This document shows, piece after piece, positions 1-42,183 of a stretch of 64,000 nucleotides of DNA (position 1 is its first letter; each line of letters opens with the position of its first letter). The stretch lies in assembly GCA_041649715.1 (NCBI GenBank), contig JBAZMP010000001.1, forward strand, positions 210,741 through 274,740, written 5' to 3'. A model generated the notes under the pieces. That model did no database searches. It saw nothing but the letters and a program-made list of their open reading frames with translations, and had not been told where the DNA came from. The position numbers and the translations under genes are program-made. Source of the stretch: Patescibacteria group bacterium (GTDB lineage Bacteria; Patescibacteriota; Patescibacteriia; JAXHNJ01).

Positions 1-9
1 CCGGAAGGC

Positions 10-1068
10 TTGGATGCCGTTTTGGTCAAAGATAAGACCGGCCGCCTGAAAATGTGGCAGAACGGCCAGTTGAAAGAAATGAATGTTTCTCCGGCCTTTT
101 CCCCTTTACCAGCCGTGCCGCCCGCCCCCCCTCGCCTCCCTCCCTCTTTTGAACCGGAAGATGAGGCCGAGATAAAAAATCACACGGATAATCTTTCGCA
201 GTACGGGCCGTCCCAAAACTACAACGTGGAGGAAATTATCTCAAAAATAGCCGCTCGATACAAATTGACTTTTAGCGAAGAAATTTTTTCCAAGCGTTTT
301 ATTTCCATTATCACGGCCCGTCTTAAGGAATTTCGAAACCGCGCGGATACGCTCGATCTTCTGACGCGCTCGGTAAAAATCGGCGGCTTGGAGTATCCGC
401 CGGAATTGGCGGAACAGATTCTAGAAGATTTAGACAAAGAGATACCAAGATTGCAGCAGGTCAAACCGCCGCAAAAATCAAAACCGGAAAATATTCCGGT
501 CACTCCCCAGGAAGCCCTGAAGAAGTCCTTGATCCAGGCCAATGTCTTCCGCTCCCCGACTCCGGAGGTCGTGCCTCCCAAAAAGGTTCCTGTCAATCCC
601 GTTCCCTTAGAATCTGTCCCCCCAAAACCACCGATACCGGAATTAGAGCCGGAAAGGAAAGAAGTCGTTTCCCGTCCGATGATGCACCGGCCGCCCGCCT
701 CTTCCGCCAAACCGAGGATGGATGATATTAAAAGCCGGGCCAAGATTTTCGGCCCCATCGAAGAATTAAAAGCTATGACAGTCAATGATTTCCGGCGTTT
801 AGGCACGGCAAAAGCCACGGCGGCGCAAAGGGTCGCTGACAAGATCAATCTTTTAAGGGAGGATTCTTTTCATAAGTTTGCCGAAGGCCTGAAGGCTTGG
901 CGGGCGGGCGAAGTATATCAGCTTTATCTAAATATGGGCATGGAGAGCATGGAAAAAGGCAAGTCGATCCGGGAAACGATTGAAAGAATGACCAATGCCG
1001 GTTTGCCCACTCTTTCCGAGCAGGAATTCAATTCCATCGTTGACCTGAACCGCAAATTAAGATATTAA
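10..1068 (+). CDS. Hypothetical Pro-rich protein; possibly 5'-partial, since the frame is open to the window edge and the start is TTG
   Basis: 352-aa ORF. Pro-rich N-terminal half. No recognisable catalytic motif. Same strand as, and immediately upstream of, the T4SS-like genes. Confidence 0.45.
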   Translation: MDAVLVKDKTGRLKMWQNGQLKEMNVSPAFSPLPAVPPAPPRLPPSFEPEDEAEIKNHTDNLSQYGPSQNYNVEEIISKIAARYKLTFSEEIFSKRFISIITARLKEFRNRADTLDLLTRSVKIGGLEYPPELAEQILEDLDKEIPRLQQVKPPQKSKPENIPVTPQEALKKSLIQANVFRSPTPEVVPPKKVPVNPVPLESVPPKPPIPELEPERKEVVSRPMMHRPPASSAKPRMDDIKSRAKIFGPIEELKAMTVNDFRRLGTAKATAAQRVADKINLLREDSFHKFAEGLKAWRAGEVYQLYLNMGMESMEKGKSIRETIERMTNAGLPTLSEQEFNSIVDLNRKLRY

Positions 1069-1077
1069 CCTTAATAT

Positions 1078-1581
1078 ATGCAGTTTATTGTGCCCCAATT
1101 CATTGATGTCGAAAATAAGATAATTGGTCCGATTTCCGTCCGCCAATTTATCACTTTGCTCGTCGGCGGCCTTTTTATTTATGTCGATTATGAAATCTTT
1201 TTTCCTATCAGTTTTTGGCTATTCGCCATCATCGGCGTCGTGCTCCTGGGCGTGTCGGGCACTTTCGCTTTCCTCCGGATCAGCGGCCGGCCCTTCCATT
1301 ATTTCATCCTTAATCTTTTTAACACTTTCAAGGAGCCGCGCCTAAGAGTCTGGAACAAACAAACAAGTCAGAATGACCTTAAATACAAGGAGGAAAAAAT
1401 TATTCCGCCCGTCGTCATCCCGCAAAAAAAGCCGCTTTCGGCCACGCGGTTGGCTGAACTTTCCTTGCTCGTGGATACGGGCGGCGTCTACCATGACGAG
1501 GAGGCTTTGGAAGAATTAGAAGATAGGCCGGAAAAGATGGCCGTTAATACTCTAATTAAACAAAAAAACCATGCCCGCTAA
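1078..1581 (+). CDS. Small membrane protein, PrgI/VirB3-like (T4SS-associated)
   Basis: 167 aa. Two adjacent hydrophobic helices near the N-terminus (LLVGGLFIYV...FWLFAIIGVVLLGVSGTFAFL). Overlaps the next gene by 11 nt. Directly upstream of the VirB4 ATPase. Confidence 0.45.
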   Translation: MQFIVPQFIDVENKIIGPISVRQFITLLVGGLFIYVDYEIFFPISFWLFAIIGVVLLGVSGTFAFLRISGRPFHYFILNLFNTFKEPRLRVWNKQTSQNDLKYKEEKIIPPVVIPQKKPLSATRLAELSLLVDTGGVYHDEEALEELEDRPEKMAVNTLIKQKNHAR

Positions 1582-2251
1582 AATTACCGGAAAAAATCGA
1601 GCGGTCTCCACTCAGCGGTATCTCGATATCACGGAGATAAAAGACAACTGCGTTGTTTTGAAGGACGGCACTCTTCGGGCGGTTTTGATGGTCTCTTCGG
1701 TCAATTTTTCGCTGAAAGGCGAAGAAGAGCAATCGGCCATTATCCAGGGGTACGTCCAGTTTTTAAACGCTCTGGATTTTAATCTTCAGATCGTCATTCA
1801 GTCCCGGAAGCTAAACATCGATAATTATCTGGAGAGAATAAAAAAAGTGGAAAAAGAGCAGACCAATGAACTGCTGCGGCTGCAGACGGTCGAATACCGC
1901 CAGTACATTTCGGAGCTGGTGCAAATGGCCGATATCATGAGCAAAAGGTTTTACGTGGCGGTCCCTTATTCCGGAAAAAAGGACAAGCAAAAAAATTTCA
2001 TCGCCCACTTTCTCGAGTCTATTTCGCCGACCACCGCTATTCATCTTAAAAAGCAGAAGTTTGAAAAATATCAGCTGGAACTGTTTAAGCGCGTGGATTA
2101 CGTGCGCGACGGCCTTTCTTCCTTGGGTTTGAGGGCGGAACCCCTGGATACCCAGAGCCTGATCGAGCTTTTTTATAATACCTATAATCCCGTGACCTAC
2201 AGTCAGGAAAAATTAGCCGACATCAAAAAAATAAACGTGGAGACCCAATAG
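1571..2251 (+). CDS. Hypothetical protein in the T4SS-like operon (possibly a separately encoded VirB4 N-terminal-like domain)
   Basis: 226 aa, soluble. Start codon overlaps the stop of the upstream gene and it ends 8 nt before virB4. No Walker motifs. Confidence 0.35.
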   Translation: MPAKITGKNRAVSTQRYLDITEIKDNCVVLKDGTLRAVLMVSSVNFSLKGEEEQSAIIQGYVQFLNALDFNLQIVIQSRKLNIDNYLERIKKVEKEQTNELLRLQTVEYRQYISELVQMADIMSKRFYVAVPYSGKKDKQKNFIAHFLESISPTTAIHLKKQKFEKYQLELFKRVDYVRDGLSSLGLRAEPLDTQSLIELFYNTYNPVTYSQEKLADIKKINVETQ

Positions 2252-2259
2252 GGTATTTT

Positions 2260-4200
2260 ATGACTGAAATAAATCTATCAAAAGTAAAATTTTCCTCTCA
2301 GAAGATGGCCGCCGGCAGCCAGCCCGCCAAAAAGGTCACTTTACCCCAGGAAGCAAGAGAGATGATCGAGGCGGAAAGGATCTACCGGCGGGGCGTGATT
2401 TCCGTGCGTGATCTGGTGGCCCCAGCGGCCATGAAAGTAGAGAAGGATTATCTCCATCTGGGCGGCAAGTATGTCCGGACGGTTTTTGTCGTCACTTATC
2501 CCCGCTATATCTCGGTCGGCTGGTTTGCGCCGGTCATCAATCTGAATTTGACCCTTGATATCGCCATGTTTTATTATCCCGTTGAGTCAAAAATAATCTT
2601 AAAGCAGCTGAAAAATAAAGTCGGAAATCTTGAGGCGCAGATTCTTTCTGACGCGGAAAAGGGGGCTCCCCGTGACCCGATGAGGGAAACAGCCTTGCGC
2701 GACATTGAAAAGTTAAGAGATGATCTGACCCAGGGGACGGAAAAATTCTTCCAGTTCGCCCTGTACATCACTCTTTACGCCGATAAGGTGGAAGAGCTTA
2801 ATAATATCACCGAAAAGATCGAATCGATGTTCGGCGCCGTTCTGGTCTACAGCAAAAGGGCCCTTTTCCAGGCGGAGCAGGGATTTAATTCCACCTTGCC
2901 CTTGGGTCTGGATGAGCTGATGGTCACCTTTAACATGAATTCCTCCCCCTGCGCTTCGTCTTTCCCGTTTATTTCCGCGGACCTGACCTCGGATAACGGG
3001 ATTCTTTACGGCATTAACCGGCACAATAACAGCTTGATCCTGTTTGACCGTTTTTCCCTGGAAAACGCGAATTTAAATGTTTTTGCCGTTTCCGGCTCGG
3101 GAAAAAGTTACGCCGTCAAGCTGGAGGTCCTGCGCAGCCTGATGATGGGCACGGATATCATTATTGTTGATCCGGAAATGGAGTACAAATATCTTTCTGA
3201 CGCGGTCGGCGGCACCTATGTCAATATTTCTTTGAATTCCGAGAGCAAGATCAATCCTTTTGACCTGCCTAGGGCCATTCACGGCGAAGAGAAAACCGCC
3301 GATATTATCCGTTCCGCCGTCATCACCTTAAAATCCTTGGTGCGGCTGATGCTCGGGGAGCTGACCCACGAAGAGGATTCCATTGTTGACCGGGCGCTTT
3401 TGGAAACTTACGCCAAAAAAGACATCACGGCTGAATCAGATCTTTCAAGCATTGAACCGCCCTTGATGAAGGATTTTCAGGAAGTCCTGGAAGGGATGGT
3501 CGGGGCGGAAGAGCTGGTCCAGCGCCTGAAAAAATACACCGAAGGGACGTTCGCCGGCCTTTTTAACAGCCCGACCAACGTGGAAATAAACAATCAGCTG
3601 GTCGTTTTTTCCGTCCGTGACCTGGAAGATGAGCTCCGGCCGATCGGCATTTCCACGATTGTTTCCTTTATCTGGAACGTCGTCCGTTCCGAGCTTAAAA
3701 AAAGAATTTTGGTCATTGATGAGGCGTGGTGGCTGATGCAGAACGAAGACTCGGCCAAATTCATCTACGCCTTGGTCAAGCGCTGCCGCAAATATTATTT
3801 GGGGGTGACCACCATCACCCAGGATGTCAATGATTTTCTGCACTCACCTTACGGCCAGGCGATCGTCAACAACTCCGCTTTGCAGCTTTTGATGAAACAG
3901 TCGCCGGCGGGGGTGGACATTGTGGCCAAAACCTTTCTTCTTACCCAGGGCGAACGGTATTTGCTGCTGGAATGCGGGGTCGGCGAAGGGATATTTTTTG
4001 CCGGTACCAGACACGCGGCCATTAAAGTGGTCGCTTCCTACACCGAAGACCAGATTATCACTTCCGATCCTCGCCAGTTGCTGGAGATAGAAGCCGCAAA
4101 GAAAGAATTTGAAAAGACGGTGGCGGCGGAAGAAGGCGAAGAAAAAAATTATAAATCTTCCAAGGCCAGGGAGGCCGAAGAGGAGGAGGGGTTAGGCTAG
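2260..4200 (+). CDS. virB4: VirB4/TrbE/TraC-family type IV secretion ATPase
   Basis: 646 aa. Walker A FAVSGSGKSYAV. Walker B ILVIDEAWWLM (the DEAW motif typical of VirB4). Size and motif order fit VirB4. Confidence 0.8.
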   Translation: MTEINLSKVKFSSQKMAAGSQPAKKVTLPQEAREMIEAERIYRRGVISVRDLVAPAAMKVEKDYLHLGGKYVRTVFVVTYPRYISVGWFAPVINLNLTLDIAMFYYPVESKIILKQLKNKVGNLEAQILSDAEKGAPRDPMRETALRDIEKLRDDLTQGTEKFFQFALYITLYADKVEELNNITEKIESMFGAVLVYSKRALFQAEQGFNSTLPLGLDELMVTFNMNSSPCASSFPFISADLTSDNGILYGINRHNNSLILFDRFSLENANLNVFAVSGSGKSYAVKLEVLRSLMMGTDIIIVDPEMEYKYLSDAVGGTYVNISLNSESKINPFDLPRAIHGEEKTADIIRSAVITLKSLVRLMLGELTHEEDSIVDRALLETYAKKDITAESDLSSIEPPLMKDFQEVLEGMVGAEELVQRLKKYTEGTFAGLFNSPTNVEINNQLVVFSVRDLEDELRPIGISTIVSFIWNVVRSELKKRILVIDEAWWLMQNEDSAKFIYALVKRCRKYYLGVTTITQDVNDFLHSPYGQAIVNNSALQLLMKQSPAGVDIVAKTFLLTQGERYLLLECGVGEGIFFAGTRHAAIKVVASYTEDQIITSDPRQLLEIEAAKKEFEKTVAAEEGEEKNYKSSKAREAEEEEGLG

Positions 4201-4226
4201 AACAATCTTAATAATTCTTAAAATAT

Positions 4227-4829
4227 ATGAAAAGAATAATATTGATCGTCGGCGCACTCCTCGTTTTAATTTTAGCGGGCCTGGCGCTTTACTGGTTTTA
4301 TTTTAGACCGTCGCCCGCCAACCAAAATACGGCGCCCGAAAACAATAATGTCAATCAGGCCATAAACAGTCATCAAAACGATAACGGGAACGAGAATACG
4401 AATACGGCGGTCAATGATAACACGAACCAGACCGCCTCGCTTGGCTCAGAAAAGATCAGGCAGGTCAGCCGGATTTTCGCCGAACGTTACGGCAGTTACT
4501 CGAATGAAAATGATTTTGAGAATCTTGTCGCCCTGAAGACCTATATGACCGATAAGTTTCAGAAAGAAACCGACAATTATATCACGAGCGAAAAAAGCAA
4601 GCTGACGGGCAATGAAGCTTACTTCGGGGTGATATCCGAAATGCTCTCGGTCAATGTCATTTCTTTGACGGAAAATAGCGCCCAAGCGGCGGTCACTTTG
4701 AGGCGGACGGAAAGGAATGAGACCAGCCCGACCGGTACTTATTTTCAAAATCTTTCTTTAAAATTTGTTAAATCCGGAAACGATTGGCTGGTGAGCAGTG
4801 CTGCTTGGCAAGAAAAAATTACCCAATAA
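4227..4829 (+). CDS. Membrane-anchored secreted protein, Asn-rich low-complexity N-terminal region
   Basis: 200 aa. N-terminal TM (ILIVGALLVLILAGLALYWF) followed by an N/Q-rich stretch. Confidence 0.5.
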   Translation: MKRIILIVGALLVLILAGLALYWFYFRPSPANQNTAPENNNVNQAINSHQNDNGNENTNTAVNDNTNQTASLGSEKIRQVSRIFAERYGSYSNENDFENLVALKTYMTDKFQKETDNYITSEKSKLTGNEAYFGVISEMLSVNVISLTENSAQAAVTLRRTERNETSPTGTYFQNLSLKFVKSGNDWLVSSAAWQEKITQ

Positions 4830-4846
4830 AATAAGCAAGTATTTTT

Positions 4847-5365
4847 ATGCGGTTGGAAGAAGAAGGTGACAATCAGGAAGAATTGCAGGAGGAAGACGAT
4901 ATTCGGCGTGAGCAGGAGGAAAACGGTATACGGCGCGAAATGGAGAGCCAGCAACTGCAAGAAAGACGGAACGAAGAACAGGCGCGGCCGAATGTCGGAC
5001 AAGAAGAGTCAAACGGCCAAGAGGGGGGCAATAGCCGGGCCGGCGACGAAAAGTCAGATGCGCGGTCATTTTCCGAGACGATAAGGCAGGCCAAACAAGC
5101 GGCGGATAAGGTAAAAAAAGTGGCGGAAACAGCGAAAAAAGTCCACCGATTCGTGCGGGTAATGCAGATAATCTGGGGGGCGATAACTTTTGTCATAGGT
5201 ACCTGGTGGTTTTGGCTGATTGTGATCGCCTTATTGTTTCTTGCCATTATAATAGGTTTTTGTAAACAGGATCCCTGCCAGTGCACGGGAGCCGGCAATA
5301 TTTTCCCCACTTTTGGACAATTCATTTATGATTTATTGAATTTATATTGTAAGACGACTGGTTGA
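4847..5365 (+). CDS. Acidic low-complexity protein with C-terminal transmembrane hairpin
   Basis: 172 aa. E/Q/R-rich N-terminal half, then two hydrophobic helices (WGAITFVIGTWWFWLIVIALLFLAIIIGF). An overlapping minus-strand ORF (4873..5325) is taken as spurious because all neighbours are on +. Confidence 0.4.
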   Translation: MRLEEEGDNQEELQEEDDIRREQEENGIRREMESQQLQERRNEEQARPNVGQEESNGQEGGNSRAGDEKSDARSFSETIRQAKQAADKVKKVAETAKKVHRFVRVMQIIWGAITFVIGTWWFWLIVIALLFLAIIIGFCKQDPCQCTGAGNIFPTFGQFIYDLLNLYCKTTG

Positions 5366-5387
5366 AAGCAATTAAATATTCTTCATA

Positions 5388-6662
5388 ATGCCTAAAACAA
5401 AGATAATAATAATACTGACGGTCTTGGCCGGCTTTCTGCTGGCTCCCGCTTTGTTATGGGCGCAGACGGAAACGGCGAATCCGGAGATACCCCTGCAAAT
5501 AAAAATCCCTATTTTTTCCTCGCCTTGCGTCGATCAGGTAAAATACCCCGGCCGCAACTGCGTCAGTGATTTCGGCGATTACATCGGCCGGTTTTACAAA
5601 TATTTTTCCGGCGTCATCGGCATCCTGGCGGCGGCGATGATCGTTTTCGGCGGTTTCCAGTGGGTGACGGCTTCAGGCAACGCGAGCAGAATCCAAAACG
5701 CCAAAACGACGATCACCGGGGCGTTGGTAGGCGTGGTTTTAACCCTATGCGCTTATGTTTTTTTGAATACCATCAATCCGGACCTGGTCTCCTTGAGGTT
5801 CCCTAATTTATCCAATATAACGCGGCAGGTTTTGGGCACTAATTTCTGCGTGGATTTACCCACGCAGTCAGGCTTGCCGCTCGTGACCGATCCAGAACAT
5901 ATACCCTGTGGCCAATATAGGGGCTTTGATCAGTCTAAATCTACCACCACCTATACTCAAGATTATTGCTGCGGGAATTGGTGCGGCCCGGATGAAGACG
6001 GAAATTCGCAAGTCTGTGCGATAGCGTCAGGCGCAAGCGTTGACAAAAAATGTCCGGAAACTTGCCAAAGTCCCAAAAAAATCTGCGAGGATGCAGACGT
6101 CAGCCAATGTAAACAAGTTGACTCCAGTTTTGCCAGTCAGGGTATAAATAGTGTTTGTCGTCAGCTAGATAGAACATCATTTGTTCGCACGGGGGTAAGT
6201 GATACTTGTCGTTATGGCGAAATAGCAAAGAGTCCTTGCAGCACGGATGGGTCGTTAAAGAAGGTCGCCTGTAACTATTCCGGTATCAATAAAGATTTTG
6301 ATACGCCTTGCTGGAATGCTAGCGGGGCCCGCTATTTGGCAATAGGTGTCGCAAAAACGGTAGGTACTGTCACTTACCGTTATTGGTGCAATTCAACAGA
6401 TAGGATCGGGGTGGATACTGATTCATTTTGTTGTGCGCAAATAAGAAAGCAGGATATTAAATGTTTGAGTGAAAGTGAAGGCGCGGCGCAAAAAGATTAT
6501 GTCGAGGTCAGCTGTACGACCGCGATGGCTGACCTGGGGTATAGTCTCAGTTTTAATAGCATGCCCGGTAATTACGCCGACTCCTCCGTTTCTACTTGTG
6601 ATGGCGGCAGAAGGTGTTATATGCAGCTTAGTTTAAGGTACTCTACTTATACTTATAAATAA
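5388..6662 (+). CDS. Secreted protein with VirB2/TrbC-type T4SS pilin-like module and Cys-rich C-terminal domain
   Basis: 424 aa. Signal peptide. 70-aa module FYKYFSGVIGILAAAMIVFGGFQWVTASGNASRIQNAKTTITGALVGVVLTLCAYVFLNTINP (two hydrophobic helices around GN..AK, as in TrbC/VirB2 pilins). Then about 260 aa with more than 25 Cys. Confidence 0.6.
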   Translation: MPKTKIIIILTVLAGFLLAPALLWAQTETANPEIPLQIKIPIFSSPCVDQVKYPGRNCVSDFGDYIGRFYKYFSGVIGILAAAMIVFGGFQWVTASGNASRIQNAKTTITGALVGVVLTLCAYVFLNTINPDLVSLRFPNLSNITRQVLGTNFCVDLPTQSGLPLVTDPEHIPCGQYRGFDQSKSTTTYTQDYCCGNWCGPDEDGNSQVCAIASGASVDKKCPETCQSPKKICEDADVSQCKQVDSSFASQGINSVCRQLDRTSFVRTGVSDTCRYGEIAKSPCSTDGSLKKVACNYSGINKDFDTPCWNASGARYLAIGVAKTVGTVTYRYWCNSTDRIGVDTDSFCCAQIRKQDIKCLSESEGAAQKDYVEVSCTTAMADLGYSLSFNSMPGNYADSSVSTCDGGRRCYMQLSLRYSTYTYK

Positions 6663-6681
6663 TTCATTTTAATATAATCTT

Positions 6682-7938
6682 ATGTCTCTTTGGAAAAAAA
6701 TACTATTAATGGCGGGTTTTGTCGCGGTCGCGGTCGGTTTCGGCTATTTTATTTTCCGCGTCTTCTTCGGCCCGGCCAACGGCAATATCAACGGTAATAT
6801 CAACGGCAATGTTAACGGTGCTTTGCCGAACGCCAATTTGGTTAACCGGCCGCCGACCAATGAGAATGTTAATGGTGTCTTGCCGAATATAAATGTCGGC
6901 GGCAATGTCAATGCCGGCATTGTTCCCGTTTCGCCGGTCGCCGCCGGCGGCGCGACCGTCGTCAAAGAAATCACCGATAACCAGACGCAGGACGCGGTTA
7001 TGGACAGTAATAGCCGCGATTTTGTCTATTACGACAGGGCCAGCGGCGAATTCCGGAAAGTCTCGGCGGACGGTTCGCAGAAAAGCCTGCTTACCTCCGA
7101 TACCTTTCCCGCGGCCGACCAAGTCTATTGGTCGCCCAGCCGCGACAAAGCGGTCGTCGCTTTTCCCGATGACTCCAAGATCGTCTATGATTTCAACCAG
7201 AAAAAACAATACAGCCTGCCGGAAGAGACGACGGAATTTTCCTTTTCTCAAGATGGCCGCCAGATGGTCTACAAATATGAAGGATATAATGCCGAGGAAC
7301 GCTGGCTGGCGGTTTCAAACCCCGACGGTTCAGGATCAAAAATCGTGGAATCGATCGGAGACAAATCGGATTTTGTCAGTGTCGACTGGGCGCCTAACAA
7401 CCAGATCGTCGCCACCTACGCCCGTTCAATGGGCCTTGACCGCCAGGAAATAGTTTTTTTAGGGCAAAACAACGAGAATTTTCCTTCCGTGGAGGTGAAC
7501 GGCCGTAATTTCCAGTCTGCTTGGTCGCCAGCCGGTGATCGCATCATTTACAGCGTTTCCAGCAATGAGACCGATTATAATCCTACCTTGTGGGTCATGA
7601 ACGGCGCCATTGAGAATTTGGGCCAATACCCGCAGGAATTGGGAGTCGCCACCTGGCCGGACAAATGCGCTTTTGGCCTTAAAAATATCATTTATTGTGC
7701 CGTCCCCAAATACTTGCCTTCGGGCAGTGACATTTATCCGGAGCTGGCGGGCAACATCAGTGATGATTTTTATCGGATCGATCTTACCACGGGTGCCAAA
7801 ACCCTTCTTGCCACGCCCGTCAATTCTTCCGGTTACGGCAGTTACACCGCCGAAAAGGTCTTTCTTTCCGCTAATGAGGAATTTCTTTCCTTTACCGACA
7901 AAAGCACCGGCCGGCTTTATCAGATCCGTTTAAAATAG
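6682..7938 (+). CDS. Membrane-anchored TolB-like (PD40) beta-propeller protein with NGNINGN repeats
   Basis: 418 aa. N-terminal TM. (NGNI/V)x repeats. Repeated motifs with W/D/G spacing typical of PD40 blades: WSPSRDKAVVAF, FSQDGRQMVY, VDWAPNNQIVA, WSPAGDRIIY. Confidence 0.55.
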   Translation: MSLWKKILLMAGFVAVAVGFGYFIFRVFFGPANGNINGNINGNVNGALPNANLVNRPPTNENVNGVLPNINVGGNVNAGIVPVSPVAAGGATVVKEITDNQTQDAVMDSNSRDFVYYDRASGEFRKVSADGSQKSLLTSDTFPAADQVYWSPSRDKAVVAFPDDSKIVYDFNQKKQYSLPEETTEFSFSQDGRQMVYKYEGYNAEERWLAVSNPDGSGSKIVESIGDKSDFVSVDWAPNNQIVATYARSMGLDRQEIVFLGQNNENFPSVEVNGRNFQSAWSPAGDRIIYSVSSNETDYNPTLWVMNGAIENLGQYPQELGVATWPDKCAFGLKNIIYCAVPKYLPSGSDIYPELAGNISDDFYRIDLTTGAKTLLATPVNSSGYGSYTAEKVFLSANEEFLSFTDKSTGRLYQIRLK

Positions 7939-7940
7939 TT

Positions 7941-8576
7941 ATGGCCGCCATGGAAAAAAAGAAATTTTTTCTTAACGCGCTGATATATTTCGCTCTTTTT
8001 ACCCTGATTATATTTGCTGTTTCTGTCTTTAGGGGCTGCCAGAAAAATGATACTGTTATCCGGCCCGAGGTTTCAGGAAAAGACCCCCGGCTGGGAGAAA
8101 AAAACGCTAAGGTCACGATCATTGAATTCGGGGATTTTCAGTGTCCGTACTGCGATGAGCTAGCTCCCATCTTCAAAAAATTAAAGGACGAATATAAGGA
8201 GCAGCTGACCATTGTTTGGAAGGACTTCCCCTTGACGACCGTTCACGAAGAAGCTTTGTCAGCCGCCCAGGCCGCTCGTTGCAGCCAAAAACAGGGCAAA
8301 TTTTGGGAAATGCATGACGAATTATTTGCCAATCAGAGCCTATTATCAGCCGAACTTTATCCTAAATTATCCGCCAAGATAGGACTTAATACCGATCAGT
8401 TCATCGATTGTCTGAACAACGGCGAAACCCTAAGCTTGATTCAGAAGAATGTCAATGAAGGGGTGGCTCTCGGCGTGGACGGCACGCCTTATTTTTATCT
8501 TAATAATTACGTTATTACCGAGCTGATGAGCGAAGAAAGCCTGAAGGCTTTAATAACAACCGAATTAGCCAAATAA
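7941..8576 (+). CDS. dsbA: DsbA-family thiol:disulfide oxidoreductase
   Basis: 211 aa. N-terminal TM anchor. Thioredoxin CxxC active site FQCPYC. DsbA-like length. Confidence 0.7.
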   Translation: MAAMEKKKFFLNALIYFALFTLIIFAVSVFRGCQKNDTVIRPEVSGKDPRLGEKNAKVTIIEFGDFQCPYCDELAPIFKKLKDEYKEQLTIVWKDFPLTTVHEEALSAAQAARCSQKQGKFWEMHDELFANQSLLSAELYPKLSAKIGLNTDQFIDCLNNGETLSLIQKNVNEGVALGVDGTPYFYLNNYVITELMSEESLKALITTELAK

Positions 8577-8582
8577 TTAATA

Positions 8583-9797
8583 ATGAAAAATATCCGCCGA
8601 CTGAAAAAATCATCAATAATTTACGTCTTGTTGCTGTTGGCGCTGATTTTAATTATAAGAGAGGCAAGACCCGTTTATGCCGAAAAAGACCGCTGCGGCC
8701 AATTTTCTTATACCGCGAAAAATGGCCGACATGAAGTTACCTGCCAGAACGATCTTTGCTCGGTCGAGGGCGCTTCACCGAAAAATTGCGAATGCGACAA
8801 TAATTATTGCTGTGTGGAATACGAGACTGGCCGGCTTGTTTCCTTAGAATGTGTGTCTAGCGCCGGCGCCAGTACGGGGACCGAAAACGGGCAGGGCAGC
8901 GAAGTGGTTTTTGAACCGCAGATTCCCTTGCCTGATTTTGCCGGCGGTACGGTTTCCGGCAGCCAATTTGGCGAATACCTAAAAGCTTTTTACCGGTATT
9001 TTTCCGGCGTGGTCGGGATTCTGGCGGCCGCCATGATAGTTTTTGGCGGGTATCAGTGGATTACGGCCGCCGGCAACGCAAGCCGGATCCAAAACGCCAA
9101 GACAACGATCAGCGGAGCGCTGGTCGGCCTGGTTTTGACCCTGACCGCCTATATTTTTCTTAATACGATCAACCCGGAACTGGTGCAGTTCAAATCTATC
9201 GAGCCCGGCGAGATCGCTCGCAACGCGCTAGAAAGCACGCAAACTCAAGAATGCCCCACCGACACGGAACTGGTGGAATTAAAGGCTTATTTTCCCAATA
9301 ATGATTTGCTGCGCGTCGCGGCCAGCGTCTCGGATCCTCGGGTCAGAAACGTGATGATACCCAAACTTGAAAAAGCCGCCAAAGAATTAAAACAAAATGA
9401 TATGAAATTGGTGATCACCGGCGCTCATCGGACTTTTGCCACTCAACAAAGATTATTCGCCTGTTATCAGGAATACAATAATACATATAGTTGCGATCTT
9501 ACCAAGTGTCCGGAAAAATGCAACGAAGCGGCGGCGCCTTCTTGTGACGCCCCGCATCTTACCGGGATGGCCATTGATGCCTGCGTGGAGGTCGGCACCG
9601 ACACCACTTTATGCACCATGATGTCCACCAAGCCCATTAATAATAATCATCCCACTGACACGAATTTAAAAAATTCACAGATCAAGTTCCAGGAGATCAT
9701 GCAGTACAACGGTTTTTACCGCTACTGCGGTGAGTGGTGGCATTTTGAGGCAGCCGAGATGTCTGCCTCTTGTGATCCGGGCGAATATTCATATTAA
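8583..9797 (+). CDS. Fusion protein: VirB2/TrbC pilin-like module plus C-terminal M15 (VanY-like) peptidase
   Basis: 404 aa. Signal/TM. Module FYRYFSGVVGILAAAMIVFGGYQWITAAGNASRIQNAKTTISGALVGLVLTLTAYIFLNTINP is about 80% identical to that of 5388..6662. C-terminal domain carries HLTGMAIDA (the HxxGxAxD zinc site) and EWWHFE (the ExxH site), typical of LAS/M15 peptidases. Confidence 0.6.
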   Translation: MKNIRRLKKSSIIYVLLLLALILIIREARPVYAEKDRCGQFSYTAKNGRHEVTCQNDLCSVEGASPKNCECDNNYCCVEYETGRLVSLECVSSAGASTGTENGQGSEVVFEPQIPLPDFAGGTVSGSQFGEYLKAFYRYFSGVVGILAAAMIVFGGYQWITAAGNASRIQNAKTTISGALVGLVLTLTAYIFLNTINPELVQFKSIEPGEIARNALESTQTQECPTDTELVELKAYFPNNDLLRVAASVSDPRVRNVMIPKLEKAAKELKQNDMKLVITGAHRTFATQQRLFACYQEYNNTYSCDLTKCPEKCNEAAAPSCDAPHLTGMAIDACVEVGTDTTLCTMMSTKPINNNHPTDTNLKNSQIKFQEIMQYNGFYRYCGEWWHFEAAEMSASCDPGEYSY

Positions 9798-9803
9798 CGA
9801 AAA

Positions 9804-11153
9804 ATGTCTTTAAAGGGGAAAAACAAAACCATATACGTCTGTTCGCACTGCGGCTCCCAGTTTCCCAAATGGCTGGGCCGCTGTTCCGAGTGCGGCGCCT
9901 GGGGCACTTTGGCTCCAGAAATTGCGTTGCCGCCTGACCGGAAGCAGCAGATCACCGGTCGCGTCGGGGAGTTGACTGATTTTTCGCGGGTCGTGGGCCG
10001 GGATTTTTCCCGCCTAAGAACAAATTTAACGGAATTAGACCGGGTGATGGGCGGCGGACTGGTGCCTGGTTCTTTGGTGTTGCTGACCGGCGAGCCCGGG
10101 ATCGGCAAATCCACCCTGGTTTTACAGATGATAAATCTATTGAATGAGGAAACGGTCTATGTCTCCGGCGAAGAATCACCCGAGCAAATAAAATTGCGGG
10201 CGGACCGGATCGGCCTGAAATCCGCAAAATTAAAATTCCTTTCCGAAACAAATATCGATAATATTATCGCCACGCTGGCTTCCGCCCGGCCAAAAGTGGC
10301 GGTTGTCGATTCTATTCAGACGATTTTTTGGGAAGATCTGCCTTCTGAATCCGGCAGCCCGGCGCAAATCAAGGTCTGCACGGTAAAATTGATGGAGCTG
10401 GCCAAGAAAAGCGATATTGTCATAATAATTATCGGCCATGTGACAAAAGAAGGAATCCTGGCCGGGCCAAAAACCATGGAGCATTTAGTGGATACGGTTT
10501 TATACCTGGAAGGCGACCGTTACCATGCTTTTCGGCTTTTGCGGGCCACCAAGAATCGTTTCGGCGCCACTTCCGAAGTGGGCGTTTTTGACATGCAAGC
10601 CGGCGGTCTGGTGGAAGTTAATAATCCTTCGGCGGTTTTTTTGGCGGAAAGGCAAAAGTCGCCCGGATCGAGCGTCGTCGCCATCATCGAAGGCTCACGG
10701 GCTTTTTTGGTTGAGATCCAGGCTTTAGTCAATACGACCGTTTTCGGGCTGCCCAGAAGAACGGCCAATGGGGTGGATTTTAACCGTCTGCAGATGATAA
10801 TCGCTGTGCTGGCCAAGCGTTGCGGCTTCCGTTTAGGCAATCAGGATATTTACGTGAATGTGGTCGGCGGTTTTAAAGTGACTGAGCCAGCCGTGGATCT
10901 GGCCATTGCCCTGGCAATCGCCTCGGCCTTTAAGAATAAATTTATCCCGGAAAAAACGGTTGTTTTAGGCGAGATCGGTCTAGGCGGAGAGATCCGCACG
11001 GTTTCGCAAGGGGAAAAGAGATTGAATGAGATCGAAAAAATGGGTTTTAAGGATGTGATCTTGAGCGCCAATGATAAAATCAGCCGGCCAAAACTGAATC
11101 TTCTCCGCGTAAAAAATCTGGCGGAGGTAATAAAGGAAGTGATTGGATATTAA
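9804..11153 (+). CDS. radA: DNA repair protein RadA/Sms
   Basis: 449 aa. N-terminal C4 zinc finger CSHCGSQFPKWLGRCSECGAWG. Walker A GEPGIGKSTL. KNRFG motif. Lon-like C-terminal domain. Confidence 0.9.
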   Translation: MSLKGKNKTIYVCSHCGSQFPKWLGRCSECGAWGTLAPEIALPPDRKQQITGRVGELTDFSRVVGRDFSRLRTNLTELDRVMGGGLVPGSLVLLTGEPGIGKSTLVLQMINLLNEETVYVSGEESPEQIKLRADRIGLKSAKLKFLSETNIDNIIATLASARPKVAVVDSIQTIFWEDLPSESGSPAQIKVCTVKLMELAKKSDIVIIIIGHVTKEGILAGPKTMEHLVDTVLYLEGDRYHAFRLLRATKNRFGATSEVGVFDMQAGGLVEVNNPSAVFLAERQKSPGSSVVAIIEGSRAFLVEIQALVNTTVFGLPRRTANGVDFNRLQMIIAVLAKRCGFRLGNQDIYVNVVGGFKVTEPAVDLAIALAIASAFKNKFIPEKTVVLGEIGLGGEIRTVSQGEKRLNEIEKMGFKDVILSANDKISRPKLNLLRVKNLAEVIKEVIGY

Positions 11154-11261: not shown

Positions 11262-11501
11262 TTACCTTCCTCTCTCCTTTGTTTTTTTGCAGCCGGCACA
11301 GCCGCAGCATTTATCGGTATCGGGGAGGGCTTCGAGTCTATCGGGCTCGATCTGTTTTCTGCACACGATGCATGTGCCCGGTTTGATACCGAGTTCTCTG
11401 CGCTTGGCAATAACGGCGATTTTTTCCCGCCGCAATTGTTCATTGCGGGCCTCAAGGGCCAGATCTGCCGGCAACTGTCGGATCGTGTCTATCGTATCCA
11501 T
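11262..11501 (-). CDS. TraR/DksA-family C4 zinc-finger protein
   Basis: 79 aa. C-terminal CIVCRKQIEPDRLEALPDTDKCCGCAGC, as in DksA/TraR. Confidence 0.55.
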   Translation of the reverse strand: MDTIDTIRQLPADLALEARNEQLRREKIAVIAKRRELGIKPGTCIVCRKQIEPDRLEALPDTDKCCGCAGCKKTKERGR

Positions 11502-11930: not shown

Positions 11931-14003
11931 TTATTCCCCGTGTATTTCTTTTTGCCACTCGCCAATTTTTTGTAAAAGGAGGGGAAATTTGGCTAGGGAC
12001 GGGTCATTTTCCATTAAAGATTTGGCCGCGGTTCGGGCTTGGGAAATTAGAGCAACGTCGGCGAGAGTTGCCATCCGGAAATCTGGCAATCCGGATTGCC
12101 TTGCCCCTATAAAATCGCCCGGGCCGCGCATTTTCAGATCGAATTCCGCCAGGCGAAAGCCGTCGCTGGTTTTTTCCAAAGCGGCCAGACGGTCGGCTGT
12201 TTTTAGGCTATCGCTTTCCGTGAAAAGAAAACAATATGATTGATGATGGCTTCTGCCGACCCGGCCCCGGAATTGATGAAGCTGGGCCAGACCGAATCTT
12301 TCCGCCCCTTCGATCATCATGACTGTGGCATTGGCAATATCAATACCCACCTCAATGACGGAAGTAGAAACGAGGATATTGATTTTATTGTTTTTAAAAT
12401 CAGCCATCACTTTTTCTTTCTCCTCCGTTTTTAGCTTGCCGTGAAGCAGGCCTATTTTCAGATCGGGAAAAACCTCATTGTTTAATTTCTCATATTCCTG
12501 TTTTACCGATTTAACCCCCAGTTTATCGGAAGATTCGATCAGGGGACAGATCACAAAGGTTTGCCGGCCGGCTTTGATTTGATTACGGATGAAATCATAG
12601 GCCTTAAAACGTTTGTCCGGGCTGACCACTTTGGTCAGGATTTTTCTTCGGCCGGCCGGCATTTCCGAGATTAAAGATAAATCCAGGTCGCCATAAACAG
12701 TTAGGGCGAGACTTCTGGGGATAGGAGTGGCGGTCATGGAGAGAAGATGGGGCATTAATTTATGGCCGGAAGAGGATTTTTCCCGCAAGGTTTTTCTTTG
12801 GGCCACGCCGAAACGGTGCTGTTCATCAACGACGACCAAAGAAAGATTTTTAAAGGTCACTTCTTCTTGGATCAAGGCGTGGGTGCCGATAACTAACTCG
12901 ATCTCACCGCTTTTTATCTTTTTTATGACGCCGGCGTGGTTTATTTTTCGGCCGCCGCTTTCTGTAAAATTACGGGTCAGCAAGGCGGTTTTTATCCGGA
13001 ACGGTTTTAAGAATTTTTTTATTTTTTCAAAATGCTGGTGGGCGAGTATTTCCGTTGGCGCCATGAAGGCGGTCTGAAAGCCGTTTCTGGCCGTATTCAG
13101 AATCGCCATAACCGCCACGATCGTCTTGCCGGAGCCGACATCCCCTTCCAATAACCTGTTCATAGGAGAGGATTTTTCCAGGTCCTTTAGAATTTCCCAG
13201 GCCGCTTTTTTCTGGCTTAGAGTCAGGGTAAAGGGGAGGGATTTAACAAATTCCCGGGTAACATTTTCCAGGAATTTAATGACCGGGGCCCGGGCTTTTT
13301 TCAGATAAATTTTATTCTGCCAGACTTGTGTTTGGATAAGAAAAAGCTCCTCAAATTTCAGGCGATTTTCCGCTTTTACCAATAAATCTTTGTTTTCCGG
13401 GAAATGGATCTGTTCTAATGCCTGGGCCAGCGGGATTAGCCGATAATTTTTTTGGATTTCGGCGGGCAGGAAATCCGGGATATTTTTTGCCGCATAGAGG
13501 ATCGATTTGATGAAAAACCGCATCTGCCTTTGGGTGATCCCGGCGGTCAGTGAATAGACGGGAACGATCCGGCCGGTATGCGTCTGCTCTTTTTTCACTT
13601 TTTCAAAAGAGGGGGAGATAAACTCGGGGGTGAGGTAATCCATCTCGACTTTGCCGGAAAGAATGATTTCGTCTCCGGGTTTCAATATTTTGGATAAGTA
13701 CGGCTGGTTGAACCAGACGATCTTGATTGAGCCGGTGTCGTCAGCGACCAGGCTTTCCGTGATGAACATTCTTCTCCGCCGGAAACTGCGGCGGCCGGTG
13801 ATCAGTTGCACCTTGCCTTTTATCGTGCAGATTTCGTGGGGTTTGACCTGATTGACTTTGACGATATGCGAAAAATCCTCGTAGCGGTAAGGAAAATAAA
13901 AAAGTAAGTCGTGGACAGTCTCGAGGTCTAAACTTTTAAGCTTGGCCGCAATCGCCGGTCCGACGCGCGGTATTTCCGAAATAGGAGAAAGATGGGTCAG
14001 CAT
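11931..14003 (-). CDS. recG: ATP-dependent DNA helicase RecG
   Basis: 690 aa. Wedge/OB N-terminal region. Helicase motifs GDVGSGKT, VVDEQHRFG, QFRGRVGR. RecG domain order. Confidence 0.9.
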   Translation of the reverse strand: MLTHLSPISEIPRVGPAIAAKLKSLDLETVHDLLFYFPYRYEDFSHIVKVNQVKPHEICTIKGKVQLITGRRSFRRRRMFITESLVADDTGSIKIVWFNQPYLSKILKPGDEIILSGKVEMDYLTPEFISPSFEKVKKEQTHTGRIVPVYSLTAGITQRQMRFFIKSILYAAKNIPDFLPAEIQKNYRLIPLAQALEQIHFPENKDLLVKAENRLKFEELFLIQTQVWQNKIYLKKARAPVIKFLENVTREFVKSLPFTLTLSQKKAAWEILKDLEKSSPMNRLLEGDVGSGKTIVAVMAILNTARNGFQTAFMAPTEILAHQHFEKIKKFLKPFRIKTALLTRNFTESGGRKINHAGVIKKIKSGEIELVIGTHALIQEEVTFKNLSLVVVDEQHRFGVAQRKTLREKSSSGHKLMPHLLSMTATPIPRSLALTVYGDLDLSLISEMPAGRRKILTKVVSPDKRFKAYDFIRNQIKAGRQTFVICPLIESSDKLGVKSVKQEYEKLNNEVFPDLKIGLLHGKLKTEEKEKVMADFKNNKINILVSTSVIEVGIDIANATVMMIEGAERFGLAQLHQFRGRVGRSHHQSYCFLFTESDSLKTADRLAALEKTSDGFRLAEFDLKMRGPGDFIGARQSGLPDFRMATLADVALISQARTAAKSLMENDPSLAKFPLLLQKIGEWQKEIHGE

Positions 14004-16051: not shown

Positions 16052-16714
16052 TTATCCACGGGCGATAACGAAGCCGGTTACTTCTTTCGCCCCGGCTTTT
16101 TTAAGAACTTTAGTTGCTTCCTTCATGGTACTGCCGGTGGTATAAACGTCATCTATAAGAATAACAGATTTGCCTGAAATTTCAAGAGGCTTAAGGAGAA
16201 AAAACGCGTCTTTTACGTTATTTTTCCTCGCGGCGGCGGATAATTCCACTTGCGGATGAGTATACCTTACTCTTTGTAGATTATCAACCCGTATGTTTAA
16301 ACAAAAAATTTTCGCCAGTTCTTCGCCGATGATCTGGGCCTGATTGAATCCTCGCCATCGCAAACGCCTTTTATGCAGAGGAACGGGGATCACCAGGGTT
16401 TCGGCGGGAAAACTCACCCTATATATTTTTGTGTAATAAGCCAATAGGCTTGCCAGGGCTGATCTTATGTCTTGGGCAAAATTGTATTTTAAGAGATGGA
16501 TCAGCTGTTTAACAATTTCGTTTTTATAATCGGCCATAACGACCAGACCGTCCAGACCGGGGCCTTTTTCCCGTTTGGCATCCGGTTTTTTAAATTCGAT
16601 TTTTTTAAGGCAGTTTTCGCAAAGCCACTGACCTTCTTTATTGCAACTCAAACAAAAGACCGGGAAAATAAGATCCAGAATGAATTTTTTTATTTGGCGG
16701 TATTTGAAATGCAT
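16052..16714 (-). CDS. comF: ComF-family competence protein (double zinc ribbon plus phosphoribosyltransferase domain)
   Basis: 220 aa. N-terminal CLSCNKEGQWLCENC. C-terminal PRTase motif VILIDDVYTTGSTM. Confidence 0.75.
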   Translation of the reverse strand: MHFKYRQIKKFILDLIFPVFCLSCNKEGQWLCENCLKKIEFKKPDAKREKGPGLDGLVVMADYKNEIVKQLIHLLKYNFAQDIRSALASLLAYYTKIYRVSFPAETLVIPVPLHKRRLRWRGFNQAQIIGEELAKIFCLNIRVDNLQRVRYTHPQVELSAAARKNNVKDAFFLLKPLEISGKSVILIDDVYTTGSTMKEATKVLKKAGAKEVTGFVIARG

Positions 16715-22039: not shown

Positions 22040-22186
22040 TTGACAATATCGGTATAATATGTTTTAATAATACAGTGTTATTTATTAGACAAATACCCTT
22101 TTCTTATGTTATTATATGATCAGACAGAAGAACTGTCAAAACAGGATTTTGCCATATTTTTCAAAAATATTAATCTTTGTAAATCT

Positions 22187-23422
22187 ATGCTAAATATCAA
22201 GAGCAAAAACAAAAATCCGATCGGTTTTCTAGCCATCCTTGTTATTCTGGGATGGTTTTTTGTGGCGGGAAGAGAAAGTTTGGCTTGGACCGAACCTATG
22301 GCCGCCCCGCCCGGCGGCAATGTGCAGGCGCCGATAAATGTCTCGGCCACGGCGCAGGCAAAGATCGGCTCTTTGACTTTGGGGGTTGACAACGCTAACC
22401 CCGGTCTTTTAAGGCTTTACCCGGCCGGGCAATTATCTGGCAGTTGCTCGGAAGGGCAGTTGGCTTATTGGAGCGGCTCTGGTCTTTATTATTGCGCCAT
22501 CAGCGGCGCCAGCACCGTCTGGCGAGGTTTAAAAACGGCCAGCGGTTTTGTACTTGAAGATGACACCCAATTGGGCTGGGGTTATTTAAAAAATGATGAT
22601 AATCCGGAAGTAGAATATGCCCTTAAGGCGGTTGGTTATAGCCAAGACGGTGGTTTGCCGTACTATACTGGCATTGAGGGAGCGGCCGGCGATAATAGTG
22701 AAAAAAATTACGGCATTTATGGCACAGATGCTGGGTTCAATAATGCCTATGCCGGTTATTTCCAGGGCAATGTGGGGGTTTCTAAAAGCACGGGCGGAGA
22801 GACAAGATTACAAGTGGGAACGAATAATAGCGATGATCAAGTTAGTCTTTGCTTGAATGATAGCGGTTGTCTCACCAGCTGGCCGTTAGGCGGGGGCAGT
22901 TACTGGACGCAAAATGATTATGACACTTATTTGACCAAAACGGATAAGAATTTGGCGCTAGGCGGCAGTGAAGCAAATGAGTCGGCTTTTTACGTGAATG
23001 TGGCCAATAATATTGATAATAACGTTAAAACAATAATTGGCCAGCCGGAAGATTTGCTCCAGGAGGATCTTTCGGCCGTGACGAGCTATTTTTGCGGAGA
23101 CGGCGCCTGTATGGCGACTGAGAATAATACCAATTGTTCCGCTGATTGCCCGCCTGTTTTTGCCGCTAATAACCCGTTCTACAACAATACCAATAAAATA
23201 ATGATCTGGTCGGCTGATGAAGCTAATTACGGGACAGTTTGTTATGGCGTTAATTCATATGACGAACATTGCGGTGACAATTCTTTAGGACAACCATCAG
23301 CGGGTAATGCGGCGTATATCACCGGCTACACCCTGGGTACTTCTTATCACGCTCAAGTCAAGATTTGGGATCAATATGGTAATGTGACGTATAGCATAGA
23401 TATTCCTTTTACCCCCTCCTAG
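22187..23422 (+). CDS. Secreted surface protein, paralog family 1 (shared N-terminal motif, YAGYF motif, FN3-like C-terminus)
   Basis: The track ORF starts at 22106, but the likely start is the internal Met at 22187 (MLNIKSKNKNPIGFLAILVILGWFFVAG signal/TM). Motif WTEPMAAPPGGNVQAPINVSATAQAKIGSLTLG is shared with 23443..25650. Also AYAGYFQGNVGV. Confidence 0.5.
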   Translation: MLNIKSKNKNPIGFLAILVILGWFFVAGRESLAWTEPMAAPPGGNVQAPINVSATAQAKIGSLTLGVDNANPGLLRLYPAGQLSGSCSEGQLAYWSGSGLYYCAISGASTVWRGLKTASGFVLEDDTQLGWGYLKNDDNPEVEYALKAVGYSQDGGLPYYTGIEGAAGDNSEKNYGIYGTDAGFNNAYAGYFQGNVGVSKSTGGETRLQVGTNNSDDQVSLCLNDSGCLTSWPLGGGSYWTQNDYDTYLTKTDKNLALGGSEANESAFYVNVANNIDNNVKTIIGQPEDLLQEDLSAVTSYFCGDGACMATENNTNCSADCPPVFAANNPFYNNTNKIMIWSADEANYGTVCYGVNSYDEHCGDNSLGQPSAGNAAYITGYTLGTSYHAQVKIWDQYGNVTYSIDIPFTPS

Positions 23423-23442
23423 TTAAAACCGTTTTTTTATTT

Positions 23443-25650: not shown

Positions 25651-25710
25651 CGGCTATTAGTTTTGACAATAATTTTCGACCGATATTAATCAAAATTTTA
25701 TAAAATTAAT

Positions 25711-27693: not shown

Positions 27694-27731
27694 ATTTTGT
27701 CTTTGATTTATAAATAAGAAACAAATAGTAT

Positions 27732-32594: not shown

Positions 32595-32609
32595 ACCCAA
32601 CGATTTTTT

Positions 32610-33752: not shown

Positions 33753-33765
33753 TTCTCTTTAGGTT

Positions 33766-34431: not shown

Positions 34432-34437
34432 TTTTAT

Positions 34438-34725
34438 ATGGCTTTAGTCAGGAAAAAAAACTATAAGAAAATGGTCGTCTATGCGGTGATATTGGTTATC
34501 ATGATTATTGTCGGCGTTTATTTTCTTATTAATTCTACGGCTAACCCGGCTAATACGAATACCGGTGTCGGAAGCATTCCTACCGGTTACTTGCCCATCG
34601 TCAGCGATTATGGGCAGGATTTGTTCACGGACCGGGATTATCAAGATTTGGAAGATTTCGCCGGCAGTAAATTACCGCTTGATCCTGACAGTATTCAAAA
34701 AGGAAGAGAAAATCCTTTTAAATAA
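34438..34725 (+). CDS. Small membrane-anchored protein (PilP position)
   Basis: 95 aa. Single N-terminal TM. Confidence 0.35.
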   Translation: MALVRKKNYKKMVVYAVILVIMIIVGVYFLINSTANPANTNTGVGSIPTGYLPIVSDYGQDLFTDRDYQDLEDFAGSKLPLDPDSIQKGRENPFK

Positions 34726-42182: not shown

Positions 42183-42183
42183 T

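Follow-up and report, generated by a model that had tools for sequence, protein, structure and literature searches.

A chromosomal type IV secretion system locus of the Patescibacteria clade, linked to radA, recG and comF

Patescibacteria's type IV secretion system (T4SS) is a published system with published hypotheses of function. In Southlakia epibionticum, the T4SS gene cluster SEML1_0006-0019, in which pilin genes were noted, is essential, and it lacks a coupling protein and a relaxase; a requirement for epibiotic growth is known only from this organism (Wang et al. 2023, PMC10633639). A survey of 3,035 Patescibacteria genomes (Quinonero-Coronel et al. 2025, PMC12102498) places Patescibacteria VirB4 in a clade nested in the MPF_FATA group; reports genes for TrsD, PrgI, VirB6 and VirB2-like proteins near virB4; describes VirD4 homologues as common in Patescibacteria, though rarely in the vicinity of virB4; finds VirB8 homologues almost only in the class ABY1, whose loci commonly carry comF, recG and radA; and proposes that the system may import DNA or other macromolecules. 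A later perspective (PMC11665869) takes up the import hypothesis and also speculates on effector delivery, and a 2025 review describes the Patescibacteria T4SS as a newcomer to the T4SS superfamily, with function unknown; in the 2026 literature on Patescibacteria and T4SS we found no functional study. Here we analyse a T4SS gene block occupying the first 9,797 nt of a 64,000-nt stretch of DNA (the window) from a Patescibacteria group bacterium (contig JBAZMP010000001.1, positions 210,741 to 274,740), and we describe its components, its chromosomal context, its linkage to radA, recG and comF, and the absence of a relaxase and a coupling protein from the DNA read. The locus rediscovers both the published system and its standing hypotheses. 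The T4SS that it encodes is derived from Gram-positive MPF_FATA (pGO1/pSK41-like) conjugation machinery and has the class ABY1-type arrangement.

To read upstream of the window we used contig L001, identical over 11,581 nt (0 mismatches), which adds 8.9 kb and brings the portion of the genome inspected to ~73 kb in total. For comparison we used the best 80 of more than 514 VirB4 relatives among species-representative genomes, in which gene order was mapped by tblastn; all counts out of 80 refer to these loci. Positions 1-9797 hold ten tightly packed genes on the + strand, or eleven in 1-11153 if radA is included, with spacings of -11 to +26 nt, as expected from the original prediction (a model's reading of the sequence alone), which had described consecutive same-strand genes with overlapping or abutting starts. 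The first gene, ORF1 (window 1-1068, +), had been read as starting at position 10; what the window holds is the last 356 codons of a 492-aa gene (L001 8513-9991) that starts 410 nt before the window, and there is no stop codon in window bases 1-9. ORF1 lies directly upstream of the PrgI gene in 79 of 80 loci and heads the gene string that runs from ORF1 to radA, with a promoter-like site upstream of it at L001 8429-8457. Its product is cytoplasmic, with a Pro-rich middle and a C-terminal domain of ~110 aa that is the conserved part, and has no Pfam or PDB match; a profile of the C-terminal domain searched against the PDB returned a SAM-domain match only, which at E 0.11 is insignificant and was set aside. 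As a separate observation, none of the ten start codons in window 1078-11153 has a Shine-Dalgarno-like purine run in the 20 nt upstream, and the leaders are A/T-rich.

The next three genes encode a VirB3-like protein, a TrsD-like protein and a VirB4 ATPase. The PrgI/VirB3-like small membrane protein (1078-1581, +), recognised as such in the original prediction, has a two-helix hydrophobic membrane hairpin at residues 15-70 and matches Pfam PrgI with E 3.1e-5 and 24.8 bits, just below the cut-off of 27 bits; its gene is at the same position in 79 of 80 loci. The 226-aa protein that follows (1571-2251, +), whose gene overlaps the PrgI gene by 11 nt and which had been listed by its length alone, is a TrsD homologue, that is, a free-standing homologue of the VirB4 N-terminal domain: it matches NCBIfam TrsD (2.3e-5), covers model positions 6-167 when aligned with CD1110 VirB4, matches pSK41 TrsD by phmmer (4.5e-5), and has a recorded Pfam TraC-like match. 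The VirB4 ATPase (2260-4200, +) is of the Gram-positive CD1110/MPF_FATA type: it scores 357.8 bits against NF045971 (cut-off 325), 1.1e-28 against Pfam P-loop_TraG and, by phmmer, 2.9e-48 to pSK41 TrsE and 7.2e-39 to pCF10 PrgJ. Its motifs are intact, with Walker A AVSGSGKS at nt 3085-3108 and, as predicted, Walker B DEAW at nt 3718-3729. Homologues of TrsD and PrgI adjoin virB4 in 79 of 80 loci.

Directly after virB4, in this locus and in 77 of the 80, lies a gene for a bitopic VirB8-like protein (4227-4829, +). The AlphaFold model of this protein comprises a transmembrane helix, a disordered Asn-rich linker and an NTF2-like ectodomain, with a predicted local distance difference test score (pLDDT) above 90 for the domain. 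Foldseek matches this model to PDB structures of VirB8 of Rickettsia, Agrobacterium and R388 (TrwG), and of CagV, TcpC, DotI-like proteins and PrgL, in a list mixed with other NTF2 folds that score equally well. The proteins described in the original prediction as secreted and Asn-rich are indeed Asn-rich, in disordered linkers, but are membrane-anchored instead of secreted.

The original prediction had also stated that no VirB6-like polytopic protein is visible in the window. This is correct for the window but not for the locus: a VirB6-like protein of 1208 aa is encoded at L001 2981-6607, 2.3-5.9 kb upstream of window position 1. Its first ~350 residues are polytopic, with about seven hydrophobic segments, and are followed by an ~850-aa Lys/Glu-rich, charged, hydrophilic tail; the N-terminal domain is kept in 47 of 80 loci and the tail in 3 of 80. 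The gene lies 6-10 kb upstream in 47 of 80 loci, a count limited by the flank length retrieved. The 1208-aa protein has no Pfam match, the family profile searched against PDB sequences gave low-complexity noise only, and hhalign of the family against pCF10 PrgH was not significant (7.6%). Aligned by hhalign to pSK41 TrsL, a TrbL-family protein, the family gave 74.5% probability with E 2.7e-5 over 180 columns; three homologues have sub-threshold Pfam TrbL matches; and the five best Foldseek PDB matches of the AlphaFold model of a homologue are all to R388 TrwI/VirB6. Four homologues carry a record of PF19590, which we take to be TrbL-like; this accession was not traced to a named family and is absent from the current Pfam scan. 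We conclude with moderate confidence that the 1208-aa protein is an 'extended' VirB6-like protein.

Upstream of the window the gene order is a giant Cys-rich protein, the 1208-aa protein, two unassigned proteins of 453 aa and 108 aa, and ORF1. The giant Cys-rich protein (L001 1-2977, directly before the VirB6-like gene) is at least 1304 aa long, its gene running off the locus, and has 35 Cys in the 989 aa read and weak CBM_4_9 and Pur_ac_phosph_N matches. It is kept in 31 of 80 loci and is possibly an adhesin of the system. The whole locus thus consists of the giant Cys-rich protein and the VirB6-like protein upstream, followed by ORF1 through the pilin/propeller/DsbA cassette described below, and ends in radA.

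Neither a coupling protein nor a relaxase is found in the 64-kb window by Pfam or phmmer, in the 8.9 kb that precede it, or in the 80 relatives within 10 kb of virB4, in agreement with the predicted lack of VirD4 and relaxase in the window; in particular, a relaxase and coupling protein immediately upstream, the finding that would have spoken for an ordinary conjugative element, did not appear. Searches with phmmer used coupling proteins (TrsK, PcfC) and relaxases (Nes, MobV, PcfG) from pSK41 and pCF10 as seeds and gave 0 matches among the 4,561 reading frames of the window, L001 and the 80 related loci, the last amounting to ~1.6 Mb, while the positive controls matched 82 frames with TrsE, 82 with PrgJ and 74 with TrsD. 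Among window open reading frames (ORFs) of at least 175 aa, no Pfam match to a coupling protein, relaxase, integrase or replication protein was found. The system might still be conjugative, with a coupling protein and a relaxase that lie in another part of the genome or have diverged beyond recognition, since VirD4 homologues are common in Patescibacteria, usually far from virB4, and the ~73 kb inspected is a fraction of the genome. We consider this very improbable, given the searches above, the presence of relaxases in only 103 of the 3,035 surveyed Patescibacteria genomes (PMC12102498), and the chromosomal synteny across many species, housekeeping flanks, uniform GC content and VirB4 conservation described next.

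The rest of the window is ordinary chromosome. Beyond the T4SS lie radA (9804-11153, +; Zn-ribbon, RecA-like ATPase and Lon-like ChlI domains), recG (11931-14003, -; RecG wedge, helicase and RecG C-terminal domains), three tRNA genes, comF (16052-16714, -; ComFC-type, with a double zinc ribbon, DZR_2, and a phosphoribosyltransferase domain, Pribosyltran), clpC, a type IV pilus cluster, ligA, gatA, ndk, fusA, tuf and genes for ribosomal proteins; the window has a uniform GC content. An origin as an integrative and conjugative element (ICE) or prophage was considered and rejected on the basis of the uniform GC content, the absence of a visible integrase, the synteny across species and the position of the tRNA genes beyond recG. 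Across the relatives, a nearly invariant core of ORF1, PrgI, TrsD, VirB4 and VirB8-like genes is kept in 77-80 of 80 loci. In 41 loci a pilin gene, a propeller gene, sometimes a dsbA gene, and a second pilin gene are inserted before radA; in the remaining loci radA or comF directly follows the VirB8-like gene. The comparison of synteny that had been proposed for this block thus yields a conserved core and a composition that matches the published Patescibacteria-clade T4SS, and the proposed search of its flanks for VirB6, VirB8 and VirD4 yields a VirB6-like protein upstream, a VirB8-like fold within the block and no VirD4.

The association with radA, recG and comF is close. Here, 6 nt separate the last T4SS gene from radA, and radA is probably co-transcribed with the T4SS genes. 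In loci that have the pilin cassette, radA starts -16 to +94 nt from the last pilin ORF in 13 of 23 cases; in loci that do not, radA or comF starts -32 to +133 nt from the VirB8-like gene in 20 of the 25 that are measurable, comF being the gene directly after the VirB8-like gene in 12 related loci. The recG gene, convergent with the string of T4SS genes and radA, is linked to the T4SS in 49 of 80 loci. The co-localisation of radA, recG and comF with the T4SS, here and in related loci, is that of the ABY1 arrangement. VirB4 identity to the 80 relatives is 72-82%, and the median identity in the same loci is 76% for VirB4 versus 49% for RadA and 53% for RecG; since the loci were picked by VirB4 similarity, the VirB4 value is biased upward. 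Even so, the VirB4 identity is so far above that of RadA and RecG that the contrast argues for strong purifying selection and vertical inheritance. Where the records of the relatives name a lineage, they name the Patescibacteria groups Kerfeldbacteria, Falkowbacteria and Buchananbacteria, which we take to belong to the GTDB class ABY1. Many of the metagenome-assembled genomes carrying the locus are titled 'uncultured Gammaproteobacteria bacterium' (L005, L016, L024, L025, L037 and others); these are probably mislabelled bins.

In summary, VirB4 type, TrsD and PrgI, VirB2-like pilins, a VirB6-like protein and a chromosomal location with no relaxase or coupling protein place the block with the Patescibacteria-clade T4SS, and the hallmarks of a conjugative MPF_FATA system, that is, coupling protein, relaxase and carriage on a plasmid or ICE, are missing from the window, L001 and the 80 loci. 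We conclude, with high confidence, that the block is a chromosomal, vertically inherited, non-conjugative T4SS of the Patescibacteria clade. The non-conjugative role suggested in the original prediction, such as DNA uptake or secretion towards a host, appears well supported in that the absence of coupling protein and relaxase holds; the same argument has been published (PMC10633639, PMC12102498, PMC11665869).

Downstream of the VirB8-like gene lies the cassette of pilin, propeller and DsbA genes, preceded by a gene for a lineage-specific small membrane protein (4847-5365, +), which has a charged N-terminus, a C-terminal hydrophobic hairpin, weak and heterogeneous Pfam matches, and a homologue in 1 of 80 loci. 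Both proteins that had been called pilin-like pass the Pfam T4SS_pilin cut-off of 26.6 bits, and both are VirB2-type pilin-domain proteins in which a large Cys-rich ectodomain accompanies a signal peptide and a two-helix pilin hairpin. The first (5388-6662, +) scores 36 bits, with the hairpin at residues 66-129 and a 295-aa ectodomain that contains 22 of the 25 Cys in the whole protein. The second (8583-9797, +), which has 18 Cys in the whole protein, scores 34.3 bits and is fused to an M15/VanY peptidoglycan peptidase (Peptidase_M15 31.9 bits and VanY 27.8 bits, each above cut-off) with intact metal-site motifs HLTGMAID and EWWH. The pilin domain is kept in 41 of 80 loci, but each of the two ectodomains of the window in only 2 loci. 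The same pattern is observed for all 68 pilin-domain ORFs across the 41 loci: the pilin hairpin is conserved, the fused extensions are hypervariable, and all 68 have long Cys-rich C-terminal extensions, with a median of 225 aa. Hydrolase domains identified by Pfam among the 68 are SLT in 15, M15/VanY in 3 and M23 in 2, such that ~30% of the pilin-domain proteins are predicted to be membrane- or pilus-anchored peptidoglycan hydrolases. One of the 68 ORFs is 1006 aa long, and there are single matches to Big_7 (Bacterial Ig) and beta-helix domains. The pilin-hydrolase fusion is a plausible candidate for a functional equivalent or replacement of VirB1, which was rarely found next to virB4 in the published survey.

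The two pilin genes flank genes for a propeller protein and a DsbA. The membrane-anchored protein with an Asn/Gly-rich linker (6682-7938, +) is probably a PD40/TolB-like beta-propeller. The TolB-like propeller of the original prediction is thus present as a gene, and its assignment is weakly supported: PD40, TolB and THOC3-propeller matches are weak, with PD40 and TolB below cut-off; the protein as a single sequence has no match in the PDB; and the best PDB match of the family profile is TolB 7mx5, with E 0.0014. The propeller gene is found in 42 of 80 loci, usually between two pilin genes. The predicted DsbA (7941-8576, +) is a membrane-anchored DsbA-like thiol-disulfide oxidoreductase, as established by matches to Thioredoxin_4 (9e-28) and DSBA (2.8e-16) and by an active-site CPYC at 8142-8153; it is found in 22 of 80 loci, and its presence in the cassette would fit the disulfide load of the ectodomains. 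The text of the survey (PMC12102498) makes no mention of pilin-hydrolase fusions or of DsbA, and in published accounts of this T4SS we did not find the pilin-hydrolase fusions, the DsbA/propeller cassette or the conservation of VirB4 beyond RadA and RecG.

Compared with the T4SS of S. epibionticum and the surveyed Patescibacteria, the locus is alike in having VirB4, TrsD, PrgI/VirB3, VirB6-like and VirB2-like proteins, in being chromosomal, in having no relaxase or coupling protein nearby and, for the survey, in the ABY1 linkage to comF, recG and radA. S. epibionticum, the source of the experimental data, belongs to another class (Saccharimonadia). S. epibionticum has an array of six pilin genes, whereas here there are two pilin-domain genes, both encoding large Cys-rich ectodomains; unlike in S. 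epibionticum, an M15 peptidase is fused to a pilin domain, and DsbA and a propeller are part of the cassette; and a VirB8-like fold is present here, whereas none was detected structurally in S. epibionticum. The resemblance to the pSK41/pGO1 subclass of conjugation systems includes the order and overlap of the genes for VirB3-like, TrsD and VirB4 proteins (the overlap of TrsC and TrsD is 14 nt, versus 11 nt here) and the relationships of VirB4 to TrsE, of the 226-aa protein to TrsD, and of the VirB6-like family to TrsL. However, pSK41 is a plasmid and encodes TrsK as coupling protein, Nes as relaxase, a topoisomerase and a single-stranded DNA-binding protein, none of which has a counterpart here, and pSK41 lacks the ~850-aa C-terminal extension of the VirB6-like protein and the pilin-domain proteins with ectodomains.

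Two further systems provide precedents for a T4SS with neither a coupling protein nor a relaxase. The archaeal Ced and Ted systems combine VirB2-like pilins with a VirB4-like ATPase and a polytopic membrane protein, have no relaxase or coupling protein, and the DNA that they import is used in recombinational repair. The locus shares with them a minimal T4SS-derived apparatus, and their use of DNA in repair resembles the linkage to radA and recG observed here. The likeness to Ced is a functional analogy only: CedB NF041017 gives 47.5 bits against a cut-off of 700 and CedD 19.5 bits against a cut-off of 600, the VirB4 of this locus belongs to the bacterial CD1110 type, and import of DNA is only a proposal for it. 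Helicobacter pylori ComB is likewise a chromosomal T4SS with no coupling protein or relaxase, and takes up DNA upstream of ComEC, ComF and recombination proteins (a precedent drawn in PMC11665869). However, ComB belongs to a diderm and has VirB7, VirB9 and VirB10, whereas the system described here follows the monoderm type and has TrsD, and none of those components was seen in it. Moreover, ComB depends on ComEC, whereas in S. epibionticum comEC is dispensable and the T4SS is essential (2025 review).

According to the hypothesis that the system imports DNA or other macromolecules from the host, the VirB6-like protein, VirB3, TrsD, VirB4 and the VirB8-like protein would assemble into a membrane channel with VirB4 as its sole source of power; the VirB2-type hairpins would anchor the disulfide-rich ectodomains or polymerise them into a pilus; DsbA would oxidise these pilin-borne ectodomains; the pilin-borne cell-wall peptidase would open peptidoglycan; and the machine would act at contact with the host cell. 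In ABY1, in a manner similar to Ced, the imported host DNA (or other macromolecules) would then be handed to ComF, RadA and RecG. We tentatively favour import on the grounds that radA or comF occurs repeatedly in the same gene string and that Ced provides a precedent with no coupling protein. The most specific form of the hypothesis, namely host-directed DNA import in ABY1 in which the host wall is opened by hydrolase ectodomains, DNA is drawn through the extended VirB6 by VirB4 alone, and its processing falls to RadA, ComF and RecG, is one that we regard as unlikely to hold in full.

Several points weigh against import. The main counter-evidence is the dispensability of comEC in S. epibionticum, cited above, which implies that the essential role of the T4SS is not classical transformation; ComEC-independent import is still compatible with that result. 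Substrate and direction are putative, for this locus as in published work. Gene order inherited in small genomes, instead of a functional coupling, could account for the linkage to radA, recG and comF, and a coupling protein may be encoded elsewhere in the genome. The window also offers another candidate path for taking up DNA: a complete type IV pilus cluster at 31509-44170, 20 kb from the T4SS, with pilM, PilO-like, pilB, pilT-like and pilC genes, a prepilin peptidase gene and at least three genes with an N-terminal methylation motif, which could itself carry out uptake. Finally, support for two channel components is limited: for the VirB8-like protein it is at the level of fold, hhalign against PrgL giving a non-significant 4% probability, and for the VirB6-like protein it is moderate, the fold matches having template-modelling scores (TM-scores) of 0.32-0.42.

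The same machine could work outward, exporting proteins, that is, effectors, hydrolases or adhesive ectodomains, onto or into the host for nutrients, with DNA not being a substrate. The absence of coupling protein and relaxase led Wang et al. 2023 (PMC10633639) to favour export of proteins, or some alternative role, the later perspective (PMC11665869) includes the speculation on effector delivery, and secretion systems that lack a type IV coupling protein exist, for example Bordetella Ptl and Brucella VirB; the variable Cys-rich ectodomains and peptidoglycan hydrolases on pilin domains, together with DsbA in the locus, are also in line with export. However, we identified no candidate effectors bearing known T4SS signals, the fused ectodomains carry Sec signal peptides and do not need a T4SS channel to exit the cell, and export leaves the recurrent operon-level juxtaposition with radA and comF unexplained. 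On balance we regard export as possible, if somewhat unlikely. An alternative that involves no transport is that the VirB2-like proteins mainly build a fibre or attachment organelle on the surface, for adhering to the host and remodelling the cell wall, as might be expected from a propeller, a hydrolase and pilin domains that bear large ectodomains, from the essentiality of the pilin array in S. epibionticum (2025 review) and from the giant Cys-rich surface protein encoded upstream in 31 of 80 loci. But 39 of 80 loci keep the core of VirB3, TrsD, VirB4 and VirB8-like proteins with no detectable adjacent pilin cassette, which indicates that the conserved part is the membrane ATPase and channel and not the fibre; in addition, adhesion is already provided by the separate type IV pilus system. 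We consider a role as a fibre alone improbable.

Other features of the window are noted here for completeness. Just upstream of the type IV pilus cluster, region 22106-31427 contains four consecutive large + strand genes, three of which encode proteins of 438, 660 and 1231 aa that have no Pfam match, and the fourth a protein of 735 aa that ends in a Hint/pretoxin-HINT domain (residues 582-725). Between radA and recG, a 79-aa ORF (11262-11501, -) has a CxxC...CxxC pattern that recalls DksA/TraR zinc fingers, with no Pfam match at E 0.001. The ORFs of ribosomal proteins S7 (55510-56157) and L23 (63282-63860) have apparent N-terminal extensions of ~60 and ~100 aa, respectively, before the Pfam domain; these could be real extensions of the type found in the candidate phyla radiation (CPR) or could mean that the start codons were assigned too far upstream.

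Among T4SSs, that of Patescibacteria was the first for which essentiality to the organism carrying it was shown, and it may supply ultra-small epibionts with host DNA, nucleotides or other macromolecules. The locus described here establishes no new principle; it is a clean and complete ABY1 example of the system. It provides useful handles: the operon-level joining of the T4SS to radA and comF, the pilin-anchored cell-wall hydrolases with a dedicated DsbA, and the VirB8-like gene beside virB4 in 77 of 80 loci. Of these, the fusion of pilin domains to hydrolases and the close placement of radA and comF beside the T4SS genes are useful but incremental additions. If the proposal of DNA import is true, the system would be a bacterial counterpart of archaeal Ced and would provide a ComEC-independent route of nucleotide supply.

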